30,378 nucleotides of DNA from a candidate division TM6 bacterium GW2011_GWF2_37_49 (GTDB lineage Bacteria > Babelota > Babeliae > Babelales > RVW-14), in NCBI GenBank assembly GCA_945861145.1, contig CAMATL010000013.1:1-30378 (forward strand). Reading direction: 5' to 3'. Below are positions 2,722 through 27,396 of the stretch, piece by piece; positions within the stretch are counted from its first letter, which is position 1, and each line of letters opens with the position of its first letter. A program made the position numbers and the translations under genes. The notes under the pieces are model-generated. The model made no database searches, was not told the DNA's origin, and worked only from the letters and a program-made list of their open reading frames with translations.

Positions 2722-4398
2722 ATGAAACAGCTTAAACGCCTTTGGGCGTACACGAAACGTTATTGGAAGATGTTGGCAGCATCGCTTTCTTCGGCCGCCT
2801 TATTCGGCGTAGTTGCCGCGGGTCCGACCTATCTTTTAAAGCGGGTTGTAGATGATATTTTTGTGAATAAAAATCATCATCTCATTCTTCCCATGGCCTT
2901 TGTATTGGTATTTATTTTTGCCTGCAAGGGCATTTTTAGTTTTTTGACTTCATACACCATGCATTGGGTTGGGCATCGCGTTGTTAACGACATACGTTCC
3001 GATTTGTTGGTAAGCGTTATGTGTTATCCGCTGAGTTTTTTTCAGGCGATGACGACAGGGCAGCTTATGTCACACTTTCTCAATGATGTACAGATGATGC
3101 AAAACGCCGCATCGGCGACCATAAAAAACGGTGTGCGAAGCCTTTTTGAAACAATGTTTTTGATTACTTTTGCTTTTCTTCAAAACTGGCAGCTAGCACT
3201 CATGATGGTGTTAGTGGGGCCGGTGATGGGTGTGATTATTAAAAAAATGGGCGCATCAATCAAGCGTTCATCATATCGCATCCAGCAAGAAGTAGGATCG
3301 CTCAGTGATCAGCTACAAGAAACGTTTAGCGGCATGCGTGAAGTGAAGGCTTTTAATGCTGAAGCTTACCATATTTCTCGCTTCGACAACCAGCTCCAAA
3401 GATTTTTTACGGCGACTATGCGTTTTGTTAAAGCTGAAGCACTGCTTCCTTCGCTCATTGAGCTGGTAACCATGGTTGGTGCAGCGCTTGCGTTTTATGT
3501 GGCAGCACAGCAGGTGATCAGTGGCTACATCACCCCCGGGCAATTAACGTCATTTGTGGCGGCATCACTTTTGGCCTATGCGCCGATGAAGCGACTTATC
3601 AATGTGTATGGTGAAATTCAATATGCTTTGGCTGCAGCAGATCGTGTTTTTATGCTGATGGATCGTGTGGTGCCTGCGCAACGCATTGGGCAGCACATAT
3701 CGTTTAAAGAGCAAATTTCATTCAATAATTTATCATTTGCCTACGCGCCAGACCGCCCGGTACTGCGCAATATTAATTTGACACTAAAAAAAGGCGAGCG
3801 GGTTGGCATTGTTGGGCCTTCTGGAGGGGGCAAGAGCACGTTGATTGACCTTCTGCTTGGCTTTATCACTCCGATTGACGGGACCATTACCATTGATGGC
3901 CAGGTGCTTACGCTGGGGAATGGTGCGCAGTGGCGTCACTATGTTGGTTATGTTGGCCAGCGGCCATTTTTGTTTAATGATACCGTACAAAACAATGTGA
4001 TGTATGGTCGAACTAAATTGAATCAAGAATCTATTCAGACGGCAATTGAAGCGGCTGATGCTCAAGATTTTGTCTGTGCGTTAGCAAAGGGATACGACAC
4101 CATGCTGGGTGAAAACGGCAATCTCTTGTCTGGCGGGCAACGACAACGGTTAACGATTGCACGAGCGCTTGCTGGGCGCCCACAATTATTAATTTTTGAT
4201 GAAGCGACTGCATCGCTTGATGCAGCTTCTGAAGATGAAATAAAAAACTCATTACAGCGCTTGCCTGCCGATGTGACCGTAATTATCGTTACGCATCGAG
4301 CCTCATTGCTTAAAGCCGTAGATCGAGTATTGCTTGTGGATGACAATTCGGTGCGTGTTGTACTCAAAGATCAGGCGCTGCGTTCGGTAGCGGTCTAA
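2722..4398 (+). CDS. ABC exporter, fused permease + ATPase (MsbA/lipid A exporter-like)
   Basis: An N-terminal domain with six predicted transmembrane helices, followed by Walker A GPSGGGKST, the ABC signature LSGGQRQRLTIARAL and Walker B LLIFDEATASLD. Confidence 0.9.
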   Translation: MKQLKRLWAYTKRYWKMLAASLSSAALFGVVAAGPTYLLKRVVDDIFVNKNHHLILPMAFVLVFIFACKGIFSFLTSYTMHWVGHRVVNDIRSDLLVSVMCYPLSFFQAMTTGQLMSHFLNDVQMMQNAASATIKNGVRSLFETMFLITFAFLQNWQLALMMVLVGPVMGVIIKKMGASIKRSSYRIQQEVGSLSDQLQETFSGMREVKAFNAEAYHISRFDNQLQRFFTATMRFVKAEALLPSLIELVTMVGAALAFYVAAQQVISGYITPGQLTSFVAASLLAYAPMKRLINVYGEIQYALAAADRVFMLMDRVVPAQRIGQHISFKEQISFNNLSFAYAPDRPVLRNINLTLKKGERVGIVGPSGGGKSTLIDLLLGFITPIDGTITIDGQVLTLGNGAQWRHYVGYVGQRPFLFNDTVQNNVMYGRTKLNQESIQTAIEAADAQDFVCALAKGYDTMLGENGNLLSGGQRQRLTIARALAGRPQLLIFDEATASLDAASEDEIKNSLQRLPADVTVIIVTHRASLLKAVDRVLLVDDNSVRVVLKDQALRSVAV

Positions 4399-4525
4399 AA
4401 ATAGTAAAAGGCCCCCGAGATTTCTCTCGAGGGCCTTTTTTCATTACTAAAAGTGCTCACACCTAAGCAGCTTTATTATCTTTGTCTTTTTCTTGTTAAC
4501 CAAGCGTGCCAAGGAACGCCGGCAA
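4396..4525. repeat. Direct-repeat copy (~94% identity) of 6677..6807: terminator plus degraded flotillin C-terminal codons (minus strand reads ...LPAFLGTLG-stop)
   Basis: Direct nucleotide comparison with 6677..6807 shows 8 mismatches over about 130 bp. In this copy Gln -> stop (gttgacc -> gttaacc). Confidence 0.85.
4406..4441. terminator. Rho-independent bidirectional terminator (A-tract, 11-bp stem with one mismatch, T-tract); copy 1 of a duplicated element
   Basis: aaaa GGCCCCCGAGA tttc TCTCGAGGGCC tttttt lies immediately after the ABC-exporter stop codon. Confidence 0.7.
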
Positions 4526-4526
4526 A

Positions 4527-5027
4527 TTAATCTTCATCTATATAAATTGATATAATTTTTTCAGGACGTTCCGGTCCAGAAATAGGACAATCATATTGAA
4601 ACCTTTGCCTTGCAGTTTGAAAGTTTTCAAACTGACTAGTGTAACCATTGATAGAAGATCTATCGTTAAATAACGACGGATACGTTTGATCAAGGATAAC
4701 AAACGCCCCACTATTCTTCAGAATGACATCTCCACAATGAAATATCTTCGTAAAATCATCTGATTCTAGTGGCCCTGCAGCAAGGGGAATAACATGTATT
4801 TGTACATTCTCTTTTTTATAAACGCGCACTCCAGTACCTGAATCAACGGTCTTTTCCCATCCTCCATCTTCTCTAATCACAAGCGGATCTCGAGGATCAC
4901 GAAAACAACTAAATGATGGATCAACAAGAAAAATATAAATAGGGACTGTTGGGTGTTGTCCTATAAACTCTTGTAAATACAGTGGAAATTGTTGATCTCG
5001 AGCTTCTTGGATAATACTGTTACGCAA
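4527..5027 (-). CDS. Hypothetical protein (166 aa), no recognisable family; stop codon is the first triplet of a 1.27-kb insertion in the flotillin-tail remnant
   Basis: Clean ORF whose TAA (4527-4529) directly abuts the end of the repeat copy. Lies downstream of the 201-aa ORF on the same strand, with a 35-bp gap. Confidence 0.5.
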   Translation of the reverse strand: MRNSIIQEARDQQFPLYLQEFIGQHPTVPIYIFLVDPSFSCFRDPRDPLVIREDGGWEKTVDSGTGVRVYKKENVQIHVIPLAAGPLESDDFTKIFHCGDVILKNSGAFVILDQTYPSLFNDRSSINGYTSQFENFQTARQRFQYDCPISGPERPEKIISIYIDED

Positions 5028-5062
5028 ATAATTAGGCCTATTAAGAAAATCAACGTAACAAC

Positions 5063-5668
5063 CTAATGCAAAAATAAAACCGCAGGTTCTTGAATCGGCT
5101 CAGCTAGCTGATGTAAATGTTGAAATAACACTTCTCTAACTTGCTTATTTTTTTCTCTCACTGCAGTCTTAACACTTTTATCACCAACCTCAAGCGTTGG
5201 CAACGCCCAAGCAACCTGCTCGTCTAAAGCTTGATAATCTGTGTCAGAATCTAGTCGATACATACTAAAAAGCTTTCTTGAAAGAAGATAAATTTGAAAA
5301 AAATGTTGTAATCCTGGGTCAGCAAATGGCTGAAAATCAGCAGAATAACCTGGTGTAATAGCATACTCCCAACCAGTTATATCATTAGGTCTTTGACTGG
5401 ACCGTAAACTGTCTTTATAGTTCTCAAATTTTGAGAATTCAGCTTTTGCCGCATTATATTCTTCAGCTGAGATATTAAAACTCTTTTGCCATGCGTCCTC
5501 TTGAGCCTGTCGCCAAACAGCTTCTTCAGTTGGTAGCTCTGAATACCTGTAGAAATACCCCATCGGCTTTACATTCAAACTAACAAAAGTCAGCATCAGC
5601 ATACAACTCAACACTTGTCGAACAAAATTCATACAAACCCCGCACAAACTTATCAATGCAATTAACAT
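5063..5668 (-). CDS. Hypothetical protein (201 aa), probably exported: hydrophobic N-terminal stretch, possible alternative start MNFVRQ at 5632
   Basis: N-terminus ...CMLMLTFVSLNVKP resembles a signal peptide. No recognisable domain. Co-oriented with 4527..5027. Confidence 0.5.
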   Translation of the reverse strand: MLIALISLCGVCMNFVRQVLSCMLMLTFVSLNVKPMGYFYRYSELPTEEAVWRQAQEDAWQKSFNISAEEYNAAKAEFSKFENYKDSLRSSQRPNDITGWEYAITPGYSADFQPFADPGLQHFFQIYLLSRKLFSMYRLDSDTDYQALDEQVAWALPTLEVGDKSVKTAVREKNKQVREVLFQHLHQLAEPIQEPAVLFLH

Positions 5669-5796
5669 ATCCTATTCATAAGCTTAGTAGCGATATATTC
5701 AAACAGTCAATATAAAAGTGCTAATTAATCATCTTTTTTATATTGATCACGCACGCCTAAGAAGGCTTGAGAACTCTTGCTTACCCTGATTTTTAT

Positions 5797-5856
5797 ACAA
5801 AAACTAATGCCACTCATTGCTGCAATATCATGCAACGGCGGTAGCGACTTGACCAT
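5797..5856. repeat. Second piece of the degraded flotillin 3'-end copy (~86% identity to 6812..6871); minus strand reads ...MVKSLPPLHDIAAMSGI
   Basis: Aligns to the intact flotillin codons ...SMVKSLPPLHDIAALSGI. Together with 4396..4525 it forms one remnant, split by the 4526..5796 insert, which sits exactly where the intact copy has gtct. Confidence 0.8.
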
Positions 5857-5962
5857 GCAGCTCATAGCCCGACTCAAACCCTAGTCATTTAGGACGAAAA
5901 CATTGTAGTTATTGCATGAAATAGTACCTTAATGATAGTCTCTTTGGAGATAGGAGGACCTT

Positions 5963-6283
5963 ATGATCACAAAAGAATTATTTGATGAGATCACACGTCG
6001 TTTAGTTCAAGCATACGATCCTGAAGCAATTTATCTTTTTGGATCTTACGCATGGGGTTCACCAACCGATGATAGCGACGTTGATCTTGCAATTATTGTA
6101 CGGGTAGCAAACCCTCGCCGTATTAAACGTACACTTGCCGCTTCAGAAGCATTATGGGGACTCGGCATCTCCAAAGACGTAATCGTTTACACGCAAGAAG
6201 AATTTGCTCGTGCAGCAGAACATCCTTCAACACTGGCCCATAAAATTTTACAAGAGGGACATGTGTTGTATGGAAAGGCATGA
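5963..6283 (+). CDS. Minimal nucleotidyltransferase (MNT, NTP_transf_2-type), antitoxin-like partner of the downstream HEPN protein
   Basis: Contains the G-S-x9-13-D-x-D motif (LFGSYAWGSPTDDSDVDL). Small at 106 aa. RBS ggagataggagga lies upstream. Confidence 0.8.
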   Translation: MITKELFDEITRRLVQAYDPEAIYLFGSYAWGSPTDDSDVDLAIIVRVANPRRIKRTLAASEALWGLGISKDVIVYTQEEFARAAEHPSTLAHKILQEGHVLYGKA

Positions 6284-6686
6284 ACTATGGCTTTATAAAG
6301 CTGAGGGGGATCTGGCTCTTGCGATAGAGGCATTGGCTATACCAAATGAAAAAATTCGGGATGCCGCAATTTATCACACGCAACAAGCTGCTGAAAAAGC
6401 ATTAAAGGCTTTTCTCGTTTTTAAGCGCGAACCATTACTCAGAACACACGACCTAGAAGATCTTCTCTGGATATGCATGAAGCATGATATTTCGTTCAAT
6501 TATCTTTTTAGATTTGCAGCACAGCTCAATCCTTTAATTATGGAATATCGCTATCCACTCGAAGATTTTGATGAACCTCAAACACCGTTGCCTGAAGAGT
6601 TAAGAGAGGCAATAGAAGCCGCAACAGAGGTTTTTAAGTTTGTAGTCGATATGATCGCAACTGATTCCGTCAGCAGTAAAAAATAG
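6270..6686 (+). CDS. HEPN-domain protein (PF05168-like), toxin-like partner of the MNT
   Basis: Contains ...HTQQAAEKALKAFLVFKREPLLRTHDLEDLL (an R-x6-H-type HEPN motif). Overlaps the MNT gene by 14 bp. Start chosen at ATG 6270, which has an acceptable spacing to the GAGGGA upstream. Alternative start ATG 6261. The listed ORF begins further upstream at 6204. Confidence 0.75.
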   Translation: MERHELWLYKAEGDLALAIEALAIPNEKIRDAAIYHTQQAAEKALKAFLVFKREPLLRTHDLEDLLWICMKHDISFNYLFRFAAQLNPLIMEYRYPLEDFDEPQTPLPEELREAIEAATEVFKFVVDMIATDSVSSKK

Positions 6687-6687
6687 T

Positions 6688-6724
6688 AAAAGGCCCACGG
6701 AATTTCTCTCGAGGGCCTTTTCTC
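6688..6724. terminator. Copy 2 of the duplicated terminator-like element (weaker stem than copy 1), between the convergent HEPN and flotillin genes
   Basis: aaaaGGCCCacggaatttctctcGAGGGCCttttctc. Confidence 0.45.
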
Positions 6725-6744
6725 ATTACTAAAAGTGCTCACAC

Positions 6745-8097
6745 CTAAGCAGCTTTATTATCTTTGTCTTTTTCTTGTTGACCAAGCGTGCCGAGGAACG
6801 TTGGTAAGTCTATGCCACTCAACGCTGCAATATCATGCAACGGCGGCAGTGATTTGACCATGCTGCTCATAAAGTTTGCGGTAGATGAGCCACCCTTGTC
6901 GCCATTGCCACTGTCCCAAACCGTGATCTTATCAATCTTAAGATTTTTGATCGCTTCGGTTTGGAGCTTGACCATTTCTTCCATCTTTTCGACTAAGAGC
7001 ATGGTTGCAGCTTCGCGAGGGTTACCACCGCAAGCATTAACCAACATACGGTAACCATCTGCCTTAGCAGCCAATACCTTCAAGGTACCTTCAGCTTCAG
7101 CCTGCTTAAGGGCAATTACAGCTGCTGCTTTACCGGTAGCTTCAATTCTTTCACGATCAGCCTCAGCCGCTGCATCGATCGATATTTTACGCTTTTCAAT
7201 TTCTTTGGGCACAATTTGCTCTGCTTCAAGACGCGCAAGCTCAGAAAGGCTTTTTGCTCTGCTGATCTCAGCATTTGATTGCTGTTGTGACACCTGGCCA
7301 CGCATAGCCGCTTCTGATTCACGTTGCAAAAGTTCTGCATTAAATGCTGCAATTCTTGCTCGTGCATCGTTTTCGCCCTGTACCGCTTCAGCATTAAAGC
7401 TGGTTACTTTGATACGACGTTCGCGATCCGCTTCTGCACTACCAATATCGCCGCGCTTTTCTTGTTCAGCCACATCTACTTTAGCTTGGTTGATAGCGGT
7501 TGAAGCCGCTTTTTTACCAATGCTTTCAATATAACCAGACTCATCCGTGATATCGGTGATGTTTACGTTAAGCAACATCAAACCAATTTTACGAAGCTCA
7601 GGCTCAATGTGCTTGCGAATTTCCATCAAAAAGCGCTCACGGTCTTGGTTGATTTCTTCAATACGCAAAGAAGCAACCGTCAAACGTAGCTGACCAATAA
7701 TGATTTCAGTCGCCATCATCTCAATGCCTTTGATTGGCAAGCCCAACAAGCGAACTGATGCGTTATTCATCGCTTCAGCTGTCGTATCAATCGCCACCGT
7801 AAAAGTACTTGGCACGTTGATACGAATATTTTGCTGAGACAGCGCCGACTTAAGCGGGATGTGCAAAGTAATCGGGGTCAAATCGAGATAATCATAATCT
7901 TGGATCAATGGCCACACAAAGGTACCACCGCCATGATAACATCTAACCGACTCGCCGCCCGTCACCTTACCATACACGGCTAAGATGCGGTTTGATGGAC
8001 AACGCTTGTAGCAATTGGCCAAAAACACGAAGGTGAAAAAAATGAACGCTGTGGCTGCTACAATCGCAGCTACAAAAAAGTTAATCGTTACAAACAT
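6745..8097 (-). CDS. Flotillin-like SPFH/band-7 protein (FloA/YqiK-type)
   Basis: N-terminal transmembrane helix, an SPFH domain, then a long Ala/Glu-rich coiled-coil region (EAEQIVPKEIEKRKISIDAAAEADRERIEATGKAAAVIALKQAEAEG...). Confidence 0.85.
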   Translation of the reverse strand: MFVTINFFVAAIVAATAFIFFTFVFLANCYKRCPSNRILAVYGKVTGGESVRCYHGGGTFVWPLIQDYDYLDLTPITLHIPLKSALSQQNIRINVPSTFTVAIDTTAEAMNNASVRLLGLPIKGIEMMATEIIIGQLRLTVASLRIEEINQDRERFLMEIRKHIEPELRKIGLMLLNVNITDITDESGYIESIGKKAASTAINQAKVDVAEQEKRGDIGSAEADRERRIKVTSFNAEAVQGENDARARIAAFNAELLQRESEAAMRGQVSQQQSNAEISRAKSLSELARLEAEQIVPKEIEKRKISIDAAAEADRERIEATGKAAAVIALKQAEAEGTLKVLAAKADGYRMLVNACGGNPREAATMLLVEKMEEMVKLQTEAIKNLKIDKITVWDSGNGDKGGSSTANFMSSMVKSLPPLHDIAALSGIDLPTFLGTLGQQEKDKDNKAA

Positions 8098-20924: not shown

Positions 20925-20926
20925 AT

Positions 20927-20969
20927 AAAAAGAGAGATCCCTGGCCCTTGCCAGGGATCTCTCTTTTTA
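20927..20969 (+). terminator. Strong rho-independent terminator, bidirectional in form (A-tract, 14-bp perfect stem, T-tract)
   Basis: aaaAGAGAGATCCCTGGcccttgCCAGGGATCTCTCTttttt. Confidence 0.85.
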
Positions 20970-20987: not shown

Positions 20988-22697
20988 ATGCACATCATTA
21001 TCCCAATGTCTGGCGTAGGCGCACGATTTCAAGCCGCAGGATACAAAGACCCCAAGCCTCTTATCTTGGTAGATGGCAAACCAATTATTGAGCATGTGGT
21101 TAATCTTTTTCCAGGCGAAACAAAATTCACCTTCATCTGCAATGAAGAGCATTTACAAACCACCGCAATGCGTGAAATCTTACAACGCATTGCTCCCTTA
21201 AGCTCCATTGCAAGCATCCCTCCACACAAGTTAGGCCCCGTATTTGCAACACTGCAAATGCAAGATTTAATCGATGACCAAGAAGAAGTAATCGTTAATT
21301 ATTGCGATTTTGGCACCTACTGGGATTACCAAGATTTTTTAAGCCACACGCGCAATCGCGCCGCCGCCGGAGCTATTCCAGCCTATCGAGGTTTTCATCC
21401 CCACATGCTTGGTACCACTAACTACGCATTTATTAAAGATTCAAATCAATGGCTAGAAGCCATTAAAGAAAAAGAACCTTGGACCAATAATCGCCTGCAA
21501 GAATATGCCTCCAATGGCACCTATTATTTCGCACGCGGCAGCTACGTAAAAAAATATTTTGAACAGGCAATCAAGCGCAATTTAAGCATCCCCGGTGCGA
21601 CCGGTGCGAATGGCGAATTTTATGTAAGCCTTGTGTACAACCTCATGGTTGAAGACAAATTACCAGTCTCAATCTACGAAATTCAGCATATGCTGCAGTG
21701 GGGAACCCCGCAAGATTTACGCGAATACGAAGCCTGGTCTGGCTATTTTCGCCAGCTTGTGGAAAAACCAAGCATCTCTCAATCTGTTGAACAGCGGAGC
21801 GTTAACCTTATCCCGCTCGCAGGGCGCGGCAAACGATTTGCTGACGAAGGCTACACTACACCAAAGCCTTTAATTCCAGTCAGCGGTAAGCCCATGATTG
21901 TACAAGCAGCGGCAGCACTGCCACGAGCAGAACAGCAAATATTTGTGTGTTTACAAGATCATTTAAATACCGCCCCGCTTAAACAAGCACTTAAGCAGGC
22001 CTACCCTCATGCATCGGTGATTGGTATCAATGCCGTCACAGAAGGGCAAGCTTGTACGTGCGCCATTGGATTGAATAATGTTGCCCCTGAAGCACCTGTT
22101 ACTATTGGCGCTTGTGACAACAGCATGCTTTTCGATAGAAAAAAGTATGAGGCTTTGCGCGATCGCGCTGATGTCGATGCCATCATATGGACATTTAAAA
22201 ATCATCCTTCTGCAAAAACTAATCCACAAATGTACGGGTGGGTTATCACTGATGATCAAAATAAGGCCGTAGGCGTTTCAGTAAAAAAAGCAATCTCATC
22301 TACGCCTGAAAAAGACCATGCCATTGTTGGTGCTTTTTATTTTAAAAAAGCAGCTCATTTCACGGCAGGACTTGAATCACTCTATAAAAACAATATTCGC
22401 ATAAATAATGAATTTTATGTCGACAGCCTCTGCGGAGAGCTGATCAAACTCGGGCTCAATGTTTATGTCTTTGAAGTTGATTTTTATGTGTGCTGGGGAA
22501 TCCCAAACGATTTACGCACCTTCAATTACTGGCAAAGCTTTTTCCATAAGTGTTCATGGCACCCCTACTCAATCAGCAAGGATCATATGGTTGCAGCTGA
22601 GGCTCAACAAAAGCTCATTGAGGAAGCAACAACATTTGCACAATCATGTGACTCTTTTTATAGTTCGCAATCAAACGATTTAGCAAAAACGATTTAG
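20988..22697 (+). CDS. Protein with two tandem sugar-phosphate nucleotidyltransferase (NTP_transferase/GxGxR-type) domains
   Basis: Each half begins with the nucleotidyltransferase signature: IIPMSGVGARF...PKPLILVDGKPIIEHV and LIPLAGRGKRF...PKPLIPVSGKPMIVQA. Confidence 0.7.
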   Translation: MHIIIPMSGVGARFQAAGYKDPKPLILVDGKPIIEHVVNLFPGETKFTFICNEEHLQTTAMREILQRIAPLSSIASIPPHKLGPVFATLQMQDLIDDQEEVIVNYCDFGTYWDYQDFLSHTRNRAAAGAIPAYRGFHPHMLGTTNYAFIKDSNQWLEAIKEKEPWTNNRLQEYASNGTYYFARGSYVKKYFEQAIKRNLSIPGATGANGEFYVSLVYNLMVEDKLPVSIYEIQHMLQWGTPQDLREYEAWSGYFRQLVEKPSISQSVEQRSVNLIPLAGRGKRFADEGYTTPKPLIPVSGKPMIVQAAAALPRAEQQIFVCLQDHLNTAPLKQALKQAYPHASVIGINAVTEGQACTCAIGLNNVAPEAPVTIGACDNSMLFDRKKYEALRDRADVDAIIWTFKNHPSAKTNPQMYGWVITDDQNKAVGVSVKKAISSTPEKDHAIVGAFYFKKAAHFTAGLESLYKNNIRINNEFYVDSLCGELIKLGLNVYVFEVDFYVCWGIPNDLRTFNYWQSFFHKCSWHPYSISKDHMVAAEAQQKLIEEATTFAQSCDSFYSSQSNDLAKTI

Positions 22698-22756
22698 CCG
22701 CTACCAAGACAGCTTGAATATTTAAACCTACCTGCACTCAAAAGCCCTGGCAATTC

Positions 22757-22785
22757 TTGACAACAGCTATAAACCCGCGCTAAAT
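22757..22785 (+). promoter_or_regulatory. Sigma70-type promoter of cassette copy 1 (TTGACA, 17-bp spacer, CTAAAT); 48-nt leader conserved with copy 2
   Basis: ttgacaacagctataaacccgcgctaaat. Paralogous block at 25674..25702. Confidence 0.55.
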
Positions 22786-22833
22786 TTCGCCCAGTTAGTC
22801 ATTTATTGCTGATTCCTATTTGAAAGGGCTATC

Positions 22834-23199
22834 ATGGATTTAATTATGAGATGTAATAAGTGCAACAGAGAGGTTCATTTTGCTGAATTTATGGGGTATG
22901 CAACAGGATATTTGCTTGAAAAAATTGGTCCTATGTTATTAGAGGCGACCGTTAAGGCCCTTATTGCATGTCTTACAGCCACAGCAGAAAAATCCTCACC
23001 AAATGCACCTACAGAAATCACCTTACAAACCAGAGGGGTGGTAGATAATACAATGGCTGGTATAGCTCTTTACTTTAAAATTGCCTGCCCTGATTGCAAA
23101 CAATGCTGCTGGCAAGCAGCTTCTACACCTAACGTAGAAATTCAAAAAAAGGCCATACCAAAGAGTCCCCAAAAAAAAGAAGTCTCTACTTCAACTTAA
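22834..23199 (+). CDS. Small cytoplasmic CxxC...CPDC (zinc-ribbon-like) protein with Lys/Ser/Thr-rich C-terminal tail; family A, copy 1
   Basis: MDLIMRCNKCNREVHFAEFMGYA...IACPDCKQCCW...KKAIPKSPQKKEVSTST. Paralogous to 25751..26095. Confidence 0.6.
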   Translation: MDLIMRCNKCNREVHFAEFMGYATGYLLEKIGPMLLEATVKALIACLTATAEKSSPNAPTEITLQTRGVVDNTMAGIALYFKIACPDCKQCCWQAASTPNVEIQKKAIPKSPQKKEVSTST

Positions 23200-23237
23200 T
23201 TTGAAAATTAATTATAAATCGAAGAAAGGGGAGTGTA

Positions 23238-23759
23238 ATGAATGTTTATCAAATTATGTTTATTAGCATACTTGTAGTATCAACACCGCTGATTGCATGG
23301 GACAACAAGGATGTCAATCAAGAATTAGAAATTTCTTGCAATGCTGATTTAACTTCACTTCTCAATGAAAACATCTCCAAATTCACTGTCATGGCTGTTA
23401 AAGCTAACTCGGTGGTAGTTTTTTTTGATGAAAAATTCAATGGCAACCCAGAATTAATTTGTACAAACTGCAGCAGAAGACTTTCTTATGCTGAATTTTT
23501 TGGTGTTATTGGAGCCATGACACTACAAAAAGTGCTAACAAGTAGCGATAAGTTTGAAGTTGTCATCTCTTTTTTTGACTCATTTACTAAGTTACTTGAA
23601 GCAGAAAATTTGGCCGTAATTGCAGCTTTCATGCTGGAATCAATTAAAAAAAAAGATGATCTGAGGAGCTATCCATGCCCAGATTGCAAGAAAAGTAACT
23701 CATGGATTTATGCCCCATATGAATCAGAAGTCAACGCAAAAATCAAAGCCCAGGCATAA
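23238..23759 (+). CDS. Secreted CxxC...CPDC protein; family B, copy 1, distantly related to family A
   Basis: Signal peptide MNVYQIMFISILVVSTPLIA. Core CTNCSRRLSYAEFFG...YPCPDCKKSNSW. RBS aaaggggag. Paralogous to 26134..26670. Confidence 0.6.
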   Translation: MNVYQIMFISILVVSTPLIAWDNKDVNQELEISCNADLTSLLNENISKFTVMAVKANSVVVFFDEKFNGNPELICTNCSRRLSYAEFFGVIGAMTLQKVLTSSDKFEVVISFFDSFTKLLEAENLAVIAAFMLESIKKKDDLRSYPCPDCKKSNSWIYAPYESEVNAKIKAQA

Positions 23760-23787
23760 CTGCTAAAAAAATCTACCACTCACTTTG

Positions 23788-24023
23788 TTGAAGTTGATTT
23801 TTATGTGTGTTGGGGAATCCCAAACGATTTACGCACATTCAATTACTGGCAAAGCTTTTTCCATAAATGTTCATGGCACCCCTACTCAATCAACAAGGAT
23901 GATATGATTGCAGCTGAGGCTCAACAAAAGCTCATTGAGGAAGCAACAACATTTGCACAATCATGTGACTCTTTTTTTACTTCTCAGTTGAGTAAAAAAA
24001 AGGTGACTGAATTATGCAAATAA
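23788..24023 (+). pseudogene. Duplicated 3' fragment of the nucleotidyltransferase gene (~97% identity to 22471..22659). It has no ATG (the listed ORF 23805..24023 starts at a GTG) and preserves a different, probably ancestral, C-terminus overlapping the GNAT start
   Basis: 6 mismatches over about 190 bp against 22471..22659. Homology fades over the next ~13 bp in both copies. In-frame remnant reads ...VCWGIPNDLRTFNYWQSFFHKCSWHPYSI... Confidence 0.75.
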
Positions 24024-24514
24024 GATCACTAACTCAAAAAGATTGGTTAATTTGGAAGAAAATTCGATTAGAAGCTCTAAAAGATTCGCCCGAAAATTTT
24101 GGATCCGCTCATGAAGAAGAATCAAATTGGAAAGGTTCAGATTTTCGAAATAGCTTACAAAAAAACAATATCTTTGGAGCCTTCATTAACCATGAACTTA
24201 TAGCTTGCGCTGGATTTTATAAAATGAATTCACTCAAAACAAAACATCGAGGTGTTATTTGGGGGGTATATACACAGCCTGAACACAGATTGAAAGGCGC
24301 ATCCAACAGCTTAATTGAAGCTATTATTATTCATGCCAAAGAACATGTAATACAAATACATTTAACTTGTGTAACAACAAATCTTGGCGCAATTAAGCTT
24401 TATCAAAAACATGGTTTTTTAATTTATGGAACTGAACCTCGCTCGCTCAAAATTGATGATATATTTTTTGACGAACACTTGATGATTTTTGTATTTAACA
24501 AAGATTCGCAATAA
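24014..24514 (+). CDS. GNAT-family N-acetyltransferase
   Basis: Acetyl-CoA-binding motif HRLKGASNSLIEAII in a 166-aa protein. RBS aaggtga upstream. Confidence 0.75.
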   Translation: MQIRSLTQKDWLIWKKIRLEALKDSPENFGSAHEEESNWKGSDFRNSLQKNNIFGAFINHELIACAGFYKMNSLKTKHRGVIWGVYTQPEHRLKGASNSLIEAIIIHAKEHVIQIHLTCVTTNLGAIKLYQKHGFLIYGTEPRSLKIDDIFFDEHLMIFVFNKDSQ

Positions 24515-24559
24515 TCAAACTATACTCTTCATGGTTGAAAAACAGGATTTTGGTGGATC

Positions 24560-24627
24560 CCGGCTCGCAGGCCGGGATGACAGGAGAGGAATGACCTTCT
24601 ACATTGTCATCCCGCCCTGCGAGCCGG
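24560..24627. repeat. GC-rich 23-bp inverted repeat (22/23 match) with a 22-nt spacer, between convergent genes; REP/MITE-like palindrome or bidirectional terminator
   Basis: CCGGCTCGCAGGCCGGGATGACA ... TGTCATCCCGCCCTGCGAGCCGG. Each arm also carries an internal CCGG...CCGG mini-palindrome. Confidence 0.6.
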
Positions 24628-24708
24628 AATACATTCTTGATATAAAAAAGTCAGTATTTTCAAGAGGGTTGAGTATAATATCAATATTTACTCCAGAATT
24701 CACTTACA

Positions 24709-25599
24709 TCATCCCTCGCGCTTGTAATCGGCAAGTACTTCATCAATAACTCGCCAAGATTTTTCTATCTCAAGGCTATTGGTGCCAGGCAGTGCAGCAC
24801 ATACGATTAAAGCCTTCCACAGGGCCCATCCTCGCCCACGCGCCCAAGTGGCACTATCGAGTGGCAGTGCTGCTCGAAATACATCTCGGCTCTCCCCTTT
24901 GAATAATGTCCAAGCAATCACCAAATCACAAGCAGGGTCGCCGACACCAGAACAACCAAAATCAATGACGGCGCTCAACGCGCCATTTTCAACTAATAGA
25001 TTCCCGACAGCAACATCCCCGTGAAACCAGACAGGAAAGCCTTGCCAGGAGGACTCAAGAGCTTTATCCCATACGGCAGTGACCGCGGCAACATCAATCG
25101 CATCGGCAAGAATCGCGAGCGATTGTCTTATTTCAGCATCATAAATTAACAGTGGCCCGCCACAGCGAGAAAAATTATGTGGTCCTCCGGTAGAGTCGAT
25201 TCGCTGCAGAGCAACTAAAAATTCGGCCAAGGCGGTGGCAAATTGCCACAGGTCAGCAATCCGCTCGATCGACACCGTTTCGCCATCAAGCCACTTATAA
25301 ATAGACCAATGCCATGGATACCCTTGGGCAGGCTTACCCATAGCCAAAGGAACAGGAATCGGGAGAGGCAGAAGTGGAGCCAATTTTGGCAACCAACAAT
25401 GTTCTTTTTCCACCGACGAAACATACTCCTCAGCACTCGGTAGCCGAACTGTCATCTGCTCACCGAGATGAAAAGTTCTGTTGTCCCATCCGCCAAACTC
25501 AACCGGCTTAACCGGAAGGTCAGCCCATTGCGGAAATTGCACGGCAACAAGGCGGCGAACAAGAGCGGCATCAATATGAATTTTGTCTGTGTTTGGCAT
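24709..25599 (-). CDS. APH-fold small-molecule kinase (aminoglycoside/choline/sugar phosphotransferase family), compositionally foreign
   Basis: Contains the catalytic HGDVAVGNLLV and IDFGCSGVGDPACDL motifs. Sampled stretches are 48-57% GC against about 36-40% for neighbouring genes. Amino-acid composition is Ala/Leu/Trp/Gly-rich, typical of a high-GC donor. Confidence 0.75.
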   Translation of the reverse strand: MPNTDKIHIDAALVRRLVAVQFPQWADLPVKPVEFGGWDNRTFHLGEQMTVRLPSAEEYVSSVEKEHCWLPKLAPLLPLPIPVPLAMGKPAQGYPWHWSIYKWLDGETVSIERIADLWQFATALAEFLVALQRIDSTGGPHNFSRCGGPLLIYDAEIRQSLAILADAIDVAAVTAVWDKALESSWQGFPVWFHGDVAVGNLLVENGALSAVIDFGCSGVGDPACDLVIAWTLFKGESRDVFRAALPLDSATWARGRGWALWKALIVCAALPGTNSLEIEKSWRVIDEVLADYKREG

Positions 25600-25673
25600 A
25601 ATTATTTCCTATCAAAAATTTGCATTAGCACTGCAAGCCTCACATCCCTAAGTCTTAACAACCCTCAGGGGCC

Positions 25674-25702
25674 TTGACAATAGCTAGAAATCCGCGTTAA
25701 AT
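25674..25702 (+). promoter_or_regulatory. Sigma70-type promoter of cassette copy 2 (TTGACA, 17-bp spacer, TTAAAT)
   Basis: ttgacaatagctagaaatccgcgttaaat, with the same 48-nt distance to the ATG as copy 1. Confidence 0.55.
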
Positions 25703-25750
25703 TTCGCCCAGTTAGTCATTTATTGATGGTTCCTCAGCGAAAGGATTATC

Positions 25751-26133: not shown

Positions 26134-26670
26134 ATGAAGCTCTTTAAAATCATATTCTTTATCTTGCTCATGATACCATCATCATCATCAGCAGGATCGG
26201 CTAAAAACACAACCTCCAAGAAACCGTTGGTTTATTCCGCAGAGAAAACACCACCCATCTTCCATAGCAACACCTTCAGCTATCTTGCTATGATTCTAAC
26301 AATGGCCCAAATTACAACTCCTTACATAGAAAAACACGGCGTCCACCCTAGATTAACATGCACAGGCTGTGACAAAATGCTTTCACACATGGAGTTTTTT
26401 ACTGAAGCACAAAGTACGATTTTACTTAAAATAATGTTAGGCACTGATGAAATCGAGATCTTTAAGTCTTTTATAAATAAATTTGCTGAATTACTCATAG
26501 CAGAAAATTACGATGCAATCGCAGCATTCATGATAGAATCACTTCAAAATAAAGATATTATCTCTCGGCCTTGCCCAAGCTGTAATAAAAATGCCTGGGT
26601 TTATAAGCCTGGCGATTTAAATCCAGGTACCAATACAAAAGACCATCCTATTCAACATACTGCCACATAA
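26134..26670 (+). CDS. Secreted CxxC...CPSC protein; family B, copy 2
   Basis: Signal peptide MKLFKIIFFILLMIPSSSSA. Core CTGCDKMLSHMEFF...AENYDAIAAFMIESL...RPCPSCNKNAW. About 45% identical to 23238..23759 over the core. Confidence 0.6.
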   Translation: MKLFKIIFFILLMIPSSSSAGSAKNTTSKKPLVYSAEKTPPIFHSNTFSYLAMILTMAQITTPYIEKHGVHPRLTCTGCDKMLSHMEFFTEAQSTILLKIMLGTDEIEIFKSFINKFAELLIAENYDAIAAFMIESLQNKDIISRPCPSCNKNAWVYKPGDLNPGTNTKDHPIQHTAT

Positions 26671-26676
26671 AAAAAT

Positions 26677-27396
26677 TTATCGCTCATTCTGCTGCGGCAA
26701 TTTTTTACGCAAGCTAGCCGAATAGCTCATCGTCCTCGCAATTAATTTCCAGCGAGCTTTTAAGCCTGAATTCCATGAAGATGAGCCGAATTGGCGAGGC
26801 CCAAATGAGACTTGAAAACGAATCAATTTAAGACCAAGCTTTTTTGCCATGTAACAGGCGTACAAATCAAGCGAAAAATCATGTGGCGGGTTTTTCCACT
26901 GCTCAAAAAAACTACGATGAAATATATTTGGCTGGGCATTTATATCCCAGAGAGGCGTCTGCAAATACAGTGTTTCAAACGCGCTCATACCCACGGTAAA
27001 AAACTGATCAAAAATAGGCCGCCCCGCGCGAGCGCCCTTCACAAATAATTTTTCAGATACTGAGCTTTTAGCGATAATGTCATACGCACGAACCACGTCT
27101 CTTGGATCTGCTTGCAGGTCTGCATGCGTCCAACCAAGCAGCTCTCCCGTTGCCACACGCAGCCCACTCAAAATTCCAAAACCGTAACCCTGATTTTTTT
27201 CAACGCGAGTAGTTTTTGCAAACTCGTAACGAGGAAGTAAAGCGGCAAGCACTGCGGCAGTCTCATCAAACGAACCATTATCTACAAGCATCACTTCAAT
27301 ATCTCGATCACCAATAACATCGGCAAAACGATCAAGTAAAAAGGGGATACTTTTTGATTCATTGTAACAAGGCACAATAATTGATAACTTCTTCAT
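26677..27396 (-). CDS. GT2-family glycosyltransferase (dolichyl/polyprenyl-phosphate sugar synthase-like), soluble form
   Basis: LSIIVPCYNE...VMLVDNGSFD...(DxD region) GWTHADLQADP, the N-terminal GT-A fold signatures. GGGAG RBS upstream. Confidence 0.75.
   Translation of the reverse strand: MKKLSIIVPCYNESKSIPFLLDRFADVIGDRDIEVMLVDNGSFDETAAVLAALLPRYEFAKTTRVEKNQGYGFGILSGLRVATGELLGWTHADLQADPRDVVRAYDIIAKSSVSEKLFVKGARAGRPIFDQFFTVGMSAFETLYLQTPLWDINAQPNIFHRSFFEQWKNPPHDFSLDLYACYMAKKLGLKLIRFQVSFGPRQFGSSSWNSGLKARWKLIARTMSYSASLRKKLPQQNER

Follow-up and report, generated by a model that had tools for sequence, protein, structure and literature searches.

Prophages and islets that enter the 3' end of a host gene, for example a tRNA gene, carry a replacement 3' end for it, and they use an integrase and a short core site, with element homology on one side of the core only. 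In Streptococcus pneumoniae, transformation triggers merodiploids in which 100 to 900 kb of resident DNA is duplicated between existing repeats (PMC3784515). In Escherichia coli, incoming linear DNA was shown experimentally to be circularised and then integrated by a RecA-dependent single crossover (PMC3240628). The locus considered here lies in a contig of 30,378 nt from a candidate division TM6 bacterium (CAMATL010000013.1, assembly GCA_945861145.1; the whole stretch is referred to as the window). In it, the intact gene for a tandem sugar-phosphate nucleotidyltransferase (NT) contains one copy of a direct repeat (copy A), and it is followed by two small genes (cassette 1), by a promoterless second copy of the NT 3' end (copy B) and by the gene for a GNAT acetyltransferase. 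This is a glycan-biosynthesis locus at which strains differ by an insertion or deletion, and the window has the filled allele. On balance, the filled allele appears to have arisen by Campbell-type additive integration of a 1317-bp allelic unit.

Filled and empty alleles at the NT gene

The longest direct repeat returned by a repeat search of the 30-kb window paired 22471-22669 with 23788-23986 (199 nt, 95%). Pairwise alignment and a four-way comparison defined a 189-nt core in which the two copies differ at six positions, 22493, 22520, 22550, 22576, 22584 and 22590 (identity 96.8%). An earlier note, made from the letters of the window alone, had described about 200 bp with six mismatches and about 97% identity; this description held, except that its right end at 23977 was one base too far, the last base of the core being 23976. 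The left edge is abrupt and begins at TTGAAGTTGA. Past the right end there are 4 mismatches in 12 nt and similarity is lost within about 15 nt, which agrees with the fading that had been reported for both copies. A repeat of 189 nt with six mismatches cannot have arisen by chance in 30 kb.

Twelve different samples, assembled by several pipelines, gave contigs with the filled order of copy A, cassette 1, copy B and GNAT (L056, L061, L062, L064, L066, L067, L071 and L077-L082, with Logan contigs and an NCBI metagenome-assembled genome [MAG] included). The window itself was 99.99% identical to the ENA contig L064 (sample ERZ27280245). An empty allele was found in three independent assemblies, L063 (NCBI GCA_945869805.1), L065 and L068. 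It has the order NT overlapping GNAT, an APH-family phosphotransferase gene (minus strand), cassette 2 and a GT2 glycosyltransferase gene (minus strand), so that cassette 1 is absent and cassette 2 is present. Its NT protein has 572 to 578 residues and ends in ...SFFTSQLSKKKVTELCK, the gene overlapping the GNAT ATG. The same end is read from copy B, the frame of which stops at 24021-24023 across the GNAT ATG at 24014, and it also terminates the full-length NT proteins P0211 and P0212. The filled allele exceeds the empty one by exactly 1317 bp.

These data bear on most of what the earlier note had claimed. It had pointed to a different C-terminus on the downstream copy, overlapping the GNAT start, and to an intact NT gene ending in insert-derived sequence; both were confirmed, and the NT tail from 22660 onward is absent from the empty-site strains. 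The empty site that it had proposed to look for in related genomes, NT followed directly by GNAT, was the one found, and it has the predicted tail. A duplicated NT tail lacking the cassette, which it had named as a finding that would speak against insertion, was present in no genome compared. A metagenome scan (JGI) for the 3' end of the repeat gave zero matches.

The distribution of differences between the alleles was informative. Across strains the locus is a recombinant mosaic with a background divergence of 3 to 5%, and zero fixed differences between filled and empty alleles were seen over 22270-22659 (390 bp) and over 23908-24822 (915 bp). Within 22270-24822, fixed differences were confined to one contiguous block, 22660-23907, which is made up of the A-specific tail, cassette 1 with the 28 nt that follow it, and the 5' 120 nt of copy B. 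Empty alleles, with their one NT tail, agree with copy A at 6/6 variable sites and then run on into the B tail, so that the six unusual bases belong to copy B. These bases were absent from every empty-site and copy-A sequence, and all lie within the 5' 120 nt of copy B; over the remaining 69 nt the two copies are identical. This exact stretch is bounded by the last mismatch at 22590/23907 and the first tail mismatch at 22660/23977. Foreign markers thus occur only on the insert-proximal sides, in the tail from 22660 and in the first 120 nt of copy B.

As read from the sequence, the six copy-B changes divide evenly: three, within the strongly conserved VCWGIPNDLRTFNYWQSFFHKC, are synonymous, and S>N, H>D and V>I fall in a poorly conserved stretch after HPYS. 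With six sites to judge from, this pattern is only suggestive of a functional, diverged allele as opposed to a decaying fragment. Decay of copy B in situ was considered and was rejected on the synonymous and nonsynonymous pattern together with the identical 915-bp right flank. Cassette 1 was nearly monomorphic, with three segregating sites in 1.1 kb over 9 to 10 contigs, which suggests that the filled structure is young or recently spread.

Origin of the insert and routes to the filled allele

The 28 nt after the cassette 1 stop match the 3' end of GT2, and the insert was therefore deduced to end in the 3' end of a GT2 allele. The stretch 23760-23790 matched the sequence after cassette 2 in L063 at 27/31 nt (26/27 for the remnant proper), as against 22/31 nt for the sequence after cassette 2 in the window itself. 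On the minus strand the remnant has a stop preceded by ...QQSEW, where the GT2 protein of the window ends in ...QQNER. The remnant, 18 to 27 nt long, is joined to an internal NT position at TTG: with a slash marking the joint, GT2 reads ...CACTTTGTTG/CTGCGG, NT reads ...GTCTTTG/AAGTTGA and the filled allele reads CACTTTGTTG/AAGTTGA, a microhomology of 3 nt. The insert plus one repeat would close to a circle through this GT2-remnant/NT junction, which is absent from the parental arrangement. Judged by its sequence, the insert derives, in circularly permuted form, from a second version of this locus with the order NT (A tail), cassette 1 and GT2 (minus strand). Direct adjacency of NT and cassette is present in the related lineages L083 and L084, in each of which the gene has its own NT tail running directly into the conserved cassette promoter; their cassette genes are 58% and 48% identical, respectively, to the 121-residue protein of cassette 1.

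Two claims of the earlier note stood in part. The NT-GNAT arrangement, proposed as ancestral, is so relative to this event, but L083 and L084 have the cassette directly after NT. The proposal that insertion generated a target duplication was right in placing the insert in the NT tail, but about 120 nt of copy B is foreign and came with the insert.

In the proposed integration, the starting state would have been the empty allele in the gene order given above. The incoming 1317-bp unit would start about 225 nt before the end of the NT gene of the alternative form, continue through its own NT tail, the promoter and the two small cysteine-containing genes, and run 18 nt (stop plus five codons) into GT2. 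Its ends would have been joined at the TTG microhomology, most likely in a small circle, derived either from a circularised DNA fragment of a sister strain or by loop-out from a tandem duplication. A single general homologous crossover in the last 69 nt (22591-22659) of the 189-nt NT patch would then make copy A resident up to the crossover and incoming in its tail, and copy B incoming up to the crossover and resident in its tail, which would still overlap GNAT. Recombination between the two copies would reverse the event. Such a single crossover predicts an intact NT gene with a new end, a cassette with its own promoter, foreign bases only in the 5' part of copy B and both flanks equal to the empty allele, all as observed. 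We infer a circular intermediate, the direction of the event and a sister strain as donor; the layout of the foreign markers fits the reverse direction, deletion, equally. The longer history of the locus would likely comprise an NT-cassette-GT2 arrangement, then insertion of GNAT-APH between NT and cassette, then addition of the second cassette.

Several points weigh against integration of this kind. A deletion from filled to empty within the same 69 nt gives identical data, and the two directions cannot be distinguished; the single crossover of a molecule carrying a homologous patch, which the earlier note had suggested, is thus supported by the mismatch pattern but not as to insertion or deletion. 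The donor allele, in which a full NT gene would combine the six B-type bases with the A tail and lead into cassette 1 and an entire GT2 gene, was not found, and 10/10 full-length NT proteins of the 90% cluster have copy-A residues. None of the assembled contigs has copy-B bases followed by the A tail, which would be the mark of the circle. At seven single-nucleotide polymorphisms (SNPs) within 22084-22269, every filled contig differs from every empty one, implying that the sampled empty alleles are not immediate parents or offspring of the sampled filled ones. That the six mismatches all fall within the first 120 nt of the 189-nt core is only weakly significant, (120/189)^6 = 0.065. Finally, a mosaic copy B (TAA then GCG) was present in four filled contigs (L061, L062, L077 and L079). 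It is the product of non-reciprocal conversion or of recombination with the empty allele, and the repeat was reshaped later. The mosaic had also been considered as the reciprocal product of a second, independent crossover; this was ruled out by L077, in which copy A is visible too and is unchanged beside the mosaic copy B.

A route in the opposite sense, by homology-facilitated illegitimate recombination (HFIR), was judged unlikely, if still plausible. The recipient would have been NT (A tail)-cassette 1-GT2 and the incoming DNA a linear piece of an NT-GNAT-APH-cassette 2-GT2 genome, anchored by homology in GT2, with its NT end joined illegitimately at TTG, 18 nt into the 3' end of the recipient GT2. 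Copy B would be wholly donor, and the empty alleles of today would be secondary deletions between A and B. This yields the same final structure from a recipient with the NT-cassette arrangement of the related lineages, illegitimate joins typically show a microhomology like the 3 nt seen at the novel junction, and deletion between 189-nt repeats is easy and would give exactly the observed empty allele. The process is documented for naturally competent species (PMC3240628). It requires, however, an unobserved donor in which a full NT gene with the six B-type bases is followed by GNAT, and an extra step for the empty alleles. The contiguous block of differences follows only on the condition that all sampled empty alleles arose by secondary deletion between A and B, and the differences of the empty alleles from all filled contigs at 22084-22269 are unexpected for recent deletion derivatives. 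The foreign bases in copy B contradict HFIR in its simple form, with the empty allele as recipient.

Tandem duplication in situ, in which a genome of NT-cassette-GT2 type would have doubled the segment reaching from the NT 3' end to the end of cassette 1, was deemed improbable. The second cassette would have been replaced by GNAT-APH-cassette 2, or the copies would simply have diverged. Duplication at the TTG microhomology would create the same novel junction, and tandem duplications stimulated by transformation are known (PMC3784515). The two copies would start identical, yet A equals the empty allele at 6/6 sites and B does not, and the copy-B changes are synonymous in the conserved stretch, unlike decay. 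The proteins of cassettes 1 and 2 are only 30 to 48% identical, so that cassette 2 is not a recent copy, and at least three events are required.

More improbable again is a mobile element (transposon, integrase islet or integron cassette) or programmed switching of the 3' end, as with the orphan modules of cdiA, rhs and tpsA. The layout is superficially similar, with an intact gene, small genes and a promoterless 3' fragment having another C-terminus, and the intact gene ends in insert-borne sequence, as with prophages that integrate into 3' ends. The insert was nevertheless devoid of the expected machinery. No transposase domain was found in the two insert proteins by Pfam and NCBIfam searches, no terminal inverted repeats were found at the insert ends by repeat search, no transposase or integrase was found in the insert, and no recombinase in the insert or in the flanking genes examined. 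There was no attC-like palindrome in 23760-23787, no tRNA in the window and no Rfam family at gathering score. The earlier note had already excluded a transposase target-site duplication; the length of the repeat, with no transposase and no terminal inverted repeats, bears this out. Homology on both sides of the crossover and alternative tails of 14 to 17 residues, lying beyond the conserved domain, also speak against an element or a switch, and the fragment of the neighbouring GT2 gene at the insert end indicates a chunk of chromosome, not an element whose ends are defined.

An artefact of assembly, by misjoining or expansion of the repeat, is effectively refuted: several short contigs do stop at the edges of the repeat (L062, L071 and L079) or within it (L069 and L070), as assemblers do at repeats, but the same junctions recur in the 12 samples, the GT2-remnant/NT junction is unique sequence, filled and empty contigs differ at linked SNPs, and with at most 69 nt of exact identity between A and B against k = 141 (k141_ stands in the names of most of these contigs) neither allele could be produced by a graph misjoin.

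Cassettes, neighbouring genes and relatives

The genes of the locus run in the order membrane/PRK fusion, HAD phosphatase, class II aldolase, NT, cassette 1, copy B, GNAT, a hairpin, APH (minus strand), cassette 2 and GT2 (minus strand), after which there are further glycosyltransferases. Coordinates are given in Table 1. The NT protein has two matches each to Pfam NTP_transferase and NTP_transf_3, and among its homologues it is conserved only to about residue 553. The nearest named relatives of the GNAT protein are those of Berkiella and Legionella (55 to 62%). The GC content is about 49% in APH and about 41% in the window as a whole, as against the low value of GNAT.

Table 1. Features of the NT locus (positions in the window)
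Feature	Position	Strand	Remarks
Intact NT gene, 569 aa	20988..22697	+	From the list of open reading frames; insert-derived end ...SFYSSQSNDLAKTI
Repeat copy A	22471..22659	+	Within the intact NT gene; equals the empty-site single copy at 6/6 variable sites
69-nt stretch shared exactly by A and B	22591..22659 (= 23908-23976)	+	Probable crossover interval
Filled-allele-specific NT tail (codons YSSQSNDLAKTI + stop) and 58-nt spacer	22660..22755	+	Absent from empty-site strains
Cassette 1 promoter-like site, TTGACA-18-TAAATT	22757..22786	+	From promoter scan
Cassette 1 gene 1, 121 aa	22834..23199	+	CxxC...CPDC; predicted zinc ribbon and three helices
Cassette 1 gene 2, 173 aa	23238..23759	+	CxxC...CPDC as in gene 1
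GT2 3'-end remnant	23764..23790	-	Stop and codons ...QQSEW; last TTG (23788-23790) common to NT
Repeat copy B	23788..23976	+	Promoterless NT 3' fragment
Empty-site allele tail (...FTSQLSKKKVTELCK + stop)	23977..24023	+	Overlaps GNAT start by 10 nt
GNAT N-acetyltransferase	24014..24514	+	33% GC; in the empty allele, coupled to NT in translation
APH-family phosphotransferase	24709..25599	-	Convergent with GNAT across hairpin 24554-24633
Cassette 2, genes of 114 aa and 178 aa	25673..26670	+	Resident counterpart of cassette 1
GT2 glycosyltransferase	26677..27396	-	3' end abuts cassette 2; source type of remnant 23764-23790

The two cassettes were 75 to 80% identical in nucleotide sequence in their conserved parts. 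At the protein level, identity was 47 to 48% between the 121- and 114-residue proteins and 30 to 33% between the 173- and 178-residue proteins, and the promoter, leader and intergenic region were much better conserved than the cassette proteins. The family of the 121-residue protein comprised 23 representatives with invariant C7, C10, E18, C85, P86, C88 and W93. An AlphaFold model of this protein predicted a zinc ribbon clasping three helices (predicted local distance difference test score 75), and the model had no significant fold match in the PDB. The 173-residue protein has an N-terminal hydrophobic leader that by eye resembles a signal peptide. Zero matches were obtained for the four cassette proteins in Pfam, NCBIfam, PADLOC and PHROGs, a word-based homologue search with the 173-residue protein returned only itself, and a metagenome scan (JGI) for the family of cassette gene 1 gave zero matches.

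The promoter-like site recurs at 25674-25703, ahead of cassette 2. Together with a leader of about 50 nt (CCCAGTTAGTCATTTATTG..GAAAGG..TATCATGGA) it was kept across four cassette variants, at 22745-22833 and 25660-25750 in the window, 95-195 in L083 and 330-416 in L084, while the proteins of these four variants were only 41 to 51% identical. The conserved promoter and leader may represent a regulatory site or an RNA; no matching Rfam family was found for them, sub-threshold hairpin matches being the only ones obtained. The product of cassette 2 gene 2, which has a hydrophobic N-terminal leader, was compared between strains (26134-26670 of the window against 12118-12645 of L063 and 3462-4007 of L079). 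It showed 77 to 90% protein identity, with flanks about 97% identical in DNA. This product appears to be fast-evolving and is possibly surface-exposed or secreted. That a second copy of a hypervariable two-gene cassette is kept in most sampled strains despite the deletion-prone repeat hints at usefulness to the cell.

The neighbours of NT vary among relatives. The closest NT relative came from a groundwater MAG. In distant relatives (76 to 92% NT identity) the gene is followed by GT2 (minus strand) directly, or by a minus-strand gene of 245 residues and then GT2. In P0204, which has an NT protein about 92% identical, it is followed by a minus-strand gene of 85 residues and then NAGPA. With at least five arrangements among relatives, the NT 3' end is a structural hot spot for the shuffling of glycan-locus alleles.

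Further observations were made near the NT gene. In the groundwater MAG nzgw201 (82% NT identity), about 7 kb lies inserted between the aldolase gene and NT (2993-9787 of L060), encoding RecT, a metallo-beta-lactamase-fold protein, three small open reading frames (ORFs) and a protein of 1264 residues, so that the locus varies at this point too. In the window, the 63-nt gap between the aldolase and NT genes contains a perfect 20-nt inverted repeat with a 4-nt loop (20926-20969), terminator- or attenuator-like in appearance, for which Rfam gave only sub-threshold, sRNA-like matches. The NT interdomain linker contains a strain-variable 9-bp coding tandem repeat (21594-21611). The extra run is 0, 18, 27 or 36 nt, corresponding to 0, 2, 3 or 4 additional 9-nt units, and the linker sequence is PGATGAN in the window, most other strains having PGPTSATSATGAN. 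Where GNAT and APH converge, 24554-24633 forms a GC-rich hairpin with 29-nt arms that are 90% complementary. In L069 (1-3682), a variant of this hairpin comes after GNAT, but the next gene encodes an Xaa-Pro aminopeptidase (AMP_N/Peptidase_M24) in place of APH, which marks the hairpin as another rearrangement breakpoint.

A second, apparently older insertion of the same geometry, with a unit of 1005 bp, was noted elsewhere in the window, at 4397-6873. Its repeat is a copy of about 195 nt comprising the terminator hairpin and last 41 or so codons of an SPFH/Band_7 gene (6745-8097, minus strand); 6679-6807 matches 4397-4525 at 93%, and 6812-6871 matches 5807-5866 at 90%. The repeat flanks a pair of MNT (NTP_transf_2/Polbeta) and HEPN genes at 5963-6686. 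The left SPFH pseudo-copy has an in-frame stop and is split by a block of 1.28 kb with two minus-strand ORFs (4527-5027 and 5063-5668). A look-up of the SPFH protein for an empty site of this second duplication returned only the source contig.

Comparison with known systems

If the proposed integration is correct, the NT locus offers a clean natural gene gain without mobile-element machinery. It is also readable from metagenome contigs, which give both alleles, the 69-nt crossover interval, the 3-nt microhomology junction and the chromosomal origin of the insert. A wider generalization seems distinctly doubtful to us, namely that the NT tail and the 3' ends of other resident genes are a recurrent handle on which modules of about 1 kb are stacked from circular DNA, the cassettes forming a diversity locus. 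Were it true, the SPFH insertion would be an older case of the same kind, and variants of the paired cysteine-protein cassettes, conserved in promoter and leader but hypervariable in their coding sequence, would be added or lost by this route.

Among the systems considered, transposons and insertion sequences differ in their short target-site duplication (2 to 14 bp) from the 189-nt repeat of this locus, and integron cassettes and integrase islands differ in that cassette 1 has its own promoter. The orphan 3' modules of polymorphic toxins (cdiA-CT, rhs and tpsA) are also unlike the present case, where the gene encodes a sugar-phosphate nucleotidyltransferase and the alternative ends comprise 14 to 17 residues beyond the conserved domain. 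Prophages and islets of gene 3' ends provide a closer likeness, in that the gene stays intact with an insert-borne end and the original 3' end is left on the far side. They differ in their integrase, which was not found here, and in the position of the homology, which here extends 120 nt upstream of the crossover interval.

The tandem duplications of S. pneumoniae merodiploids are similar in that homologous pairing at a repeat leads to a duplication-bordered structure with no mobile-element enzyme (PMC3784515). They are dissimilar in that here 1.3 kb of allelic foreign DNA was added and the repeat was created by the event. HFIR in natural transformation shares one homologous joint, one joint at 3-nt (TTG) microhomology and the gain of foreign genes beside the homologous anchor. 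Its simple form predicts an all-resident copy B, whereas the first 120 nt of copy B are foreign; HFIR fits only if the roles of donor and recipient are swapped and the empty alleles are secondary.

The closest likeness is to Campbell integration. Direct repeats of a homologous patch flank the insert, a single copy marks the empty site, and each repeat is part resident and part incoming. Recombination between the repeats can undo the event, and no element-encoded enzyme is needed; the route is documented for incoming linear DNA that circularises (PMC3240628). The present case is unlike it in being a natural polymorphism of uncultivated freshwater or groundwater bacteria, with a putative circle, and in that an allelic segment of this very locus came in, not a plasmid. 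We regard it as one more example of a known process, a mechanistically ordinary gene gain that overturns no known principle.

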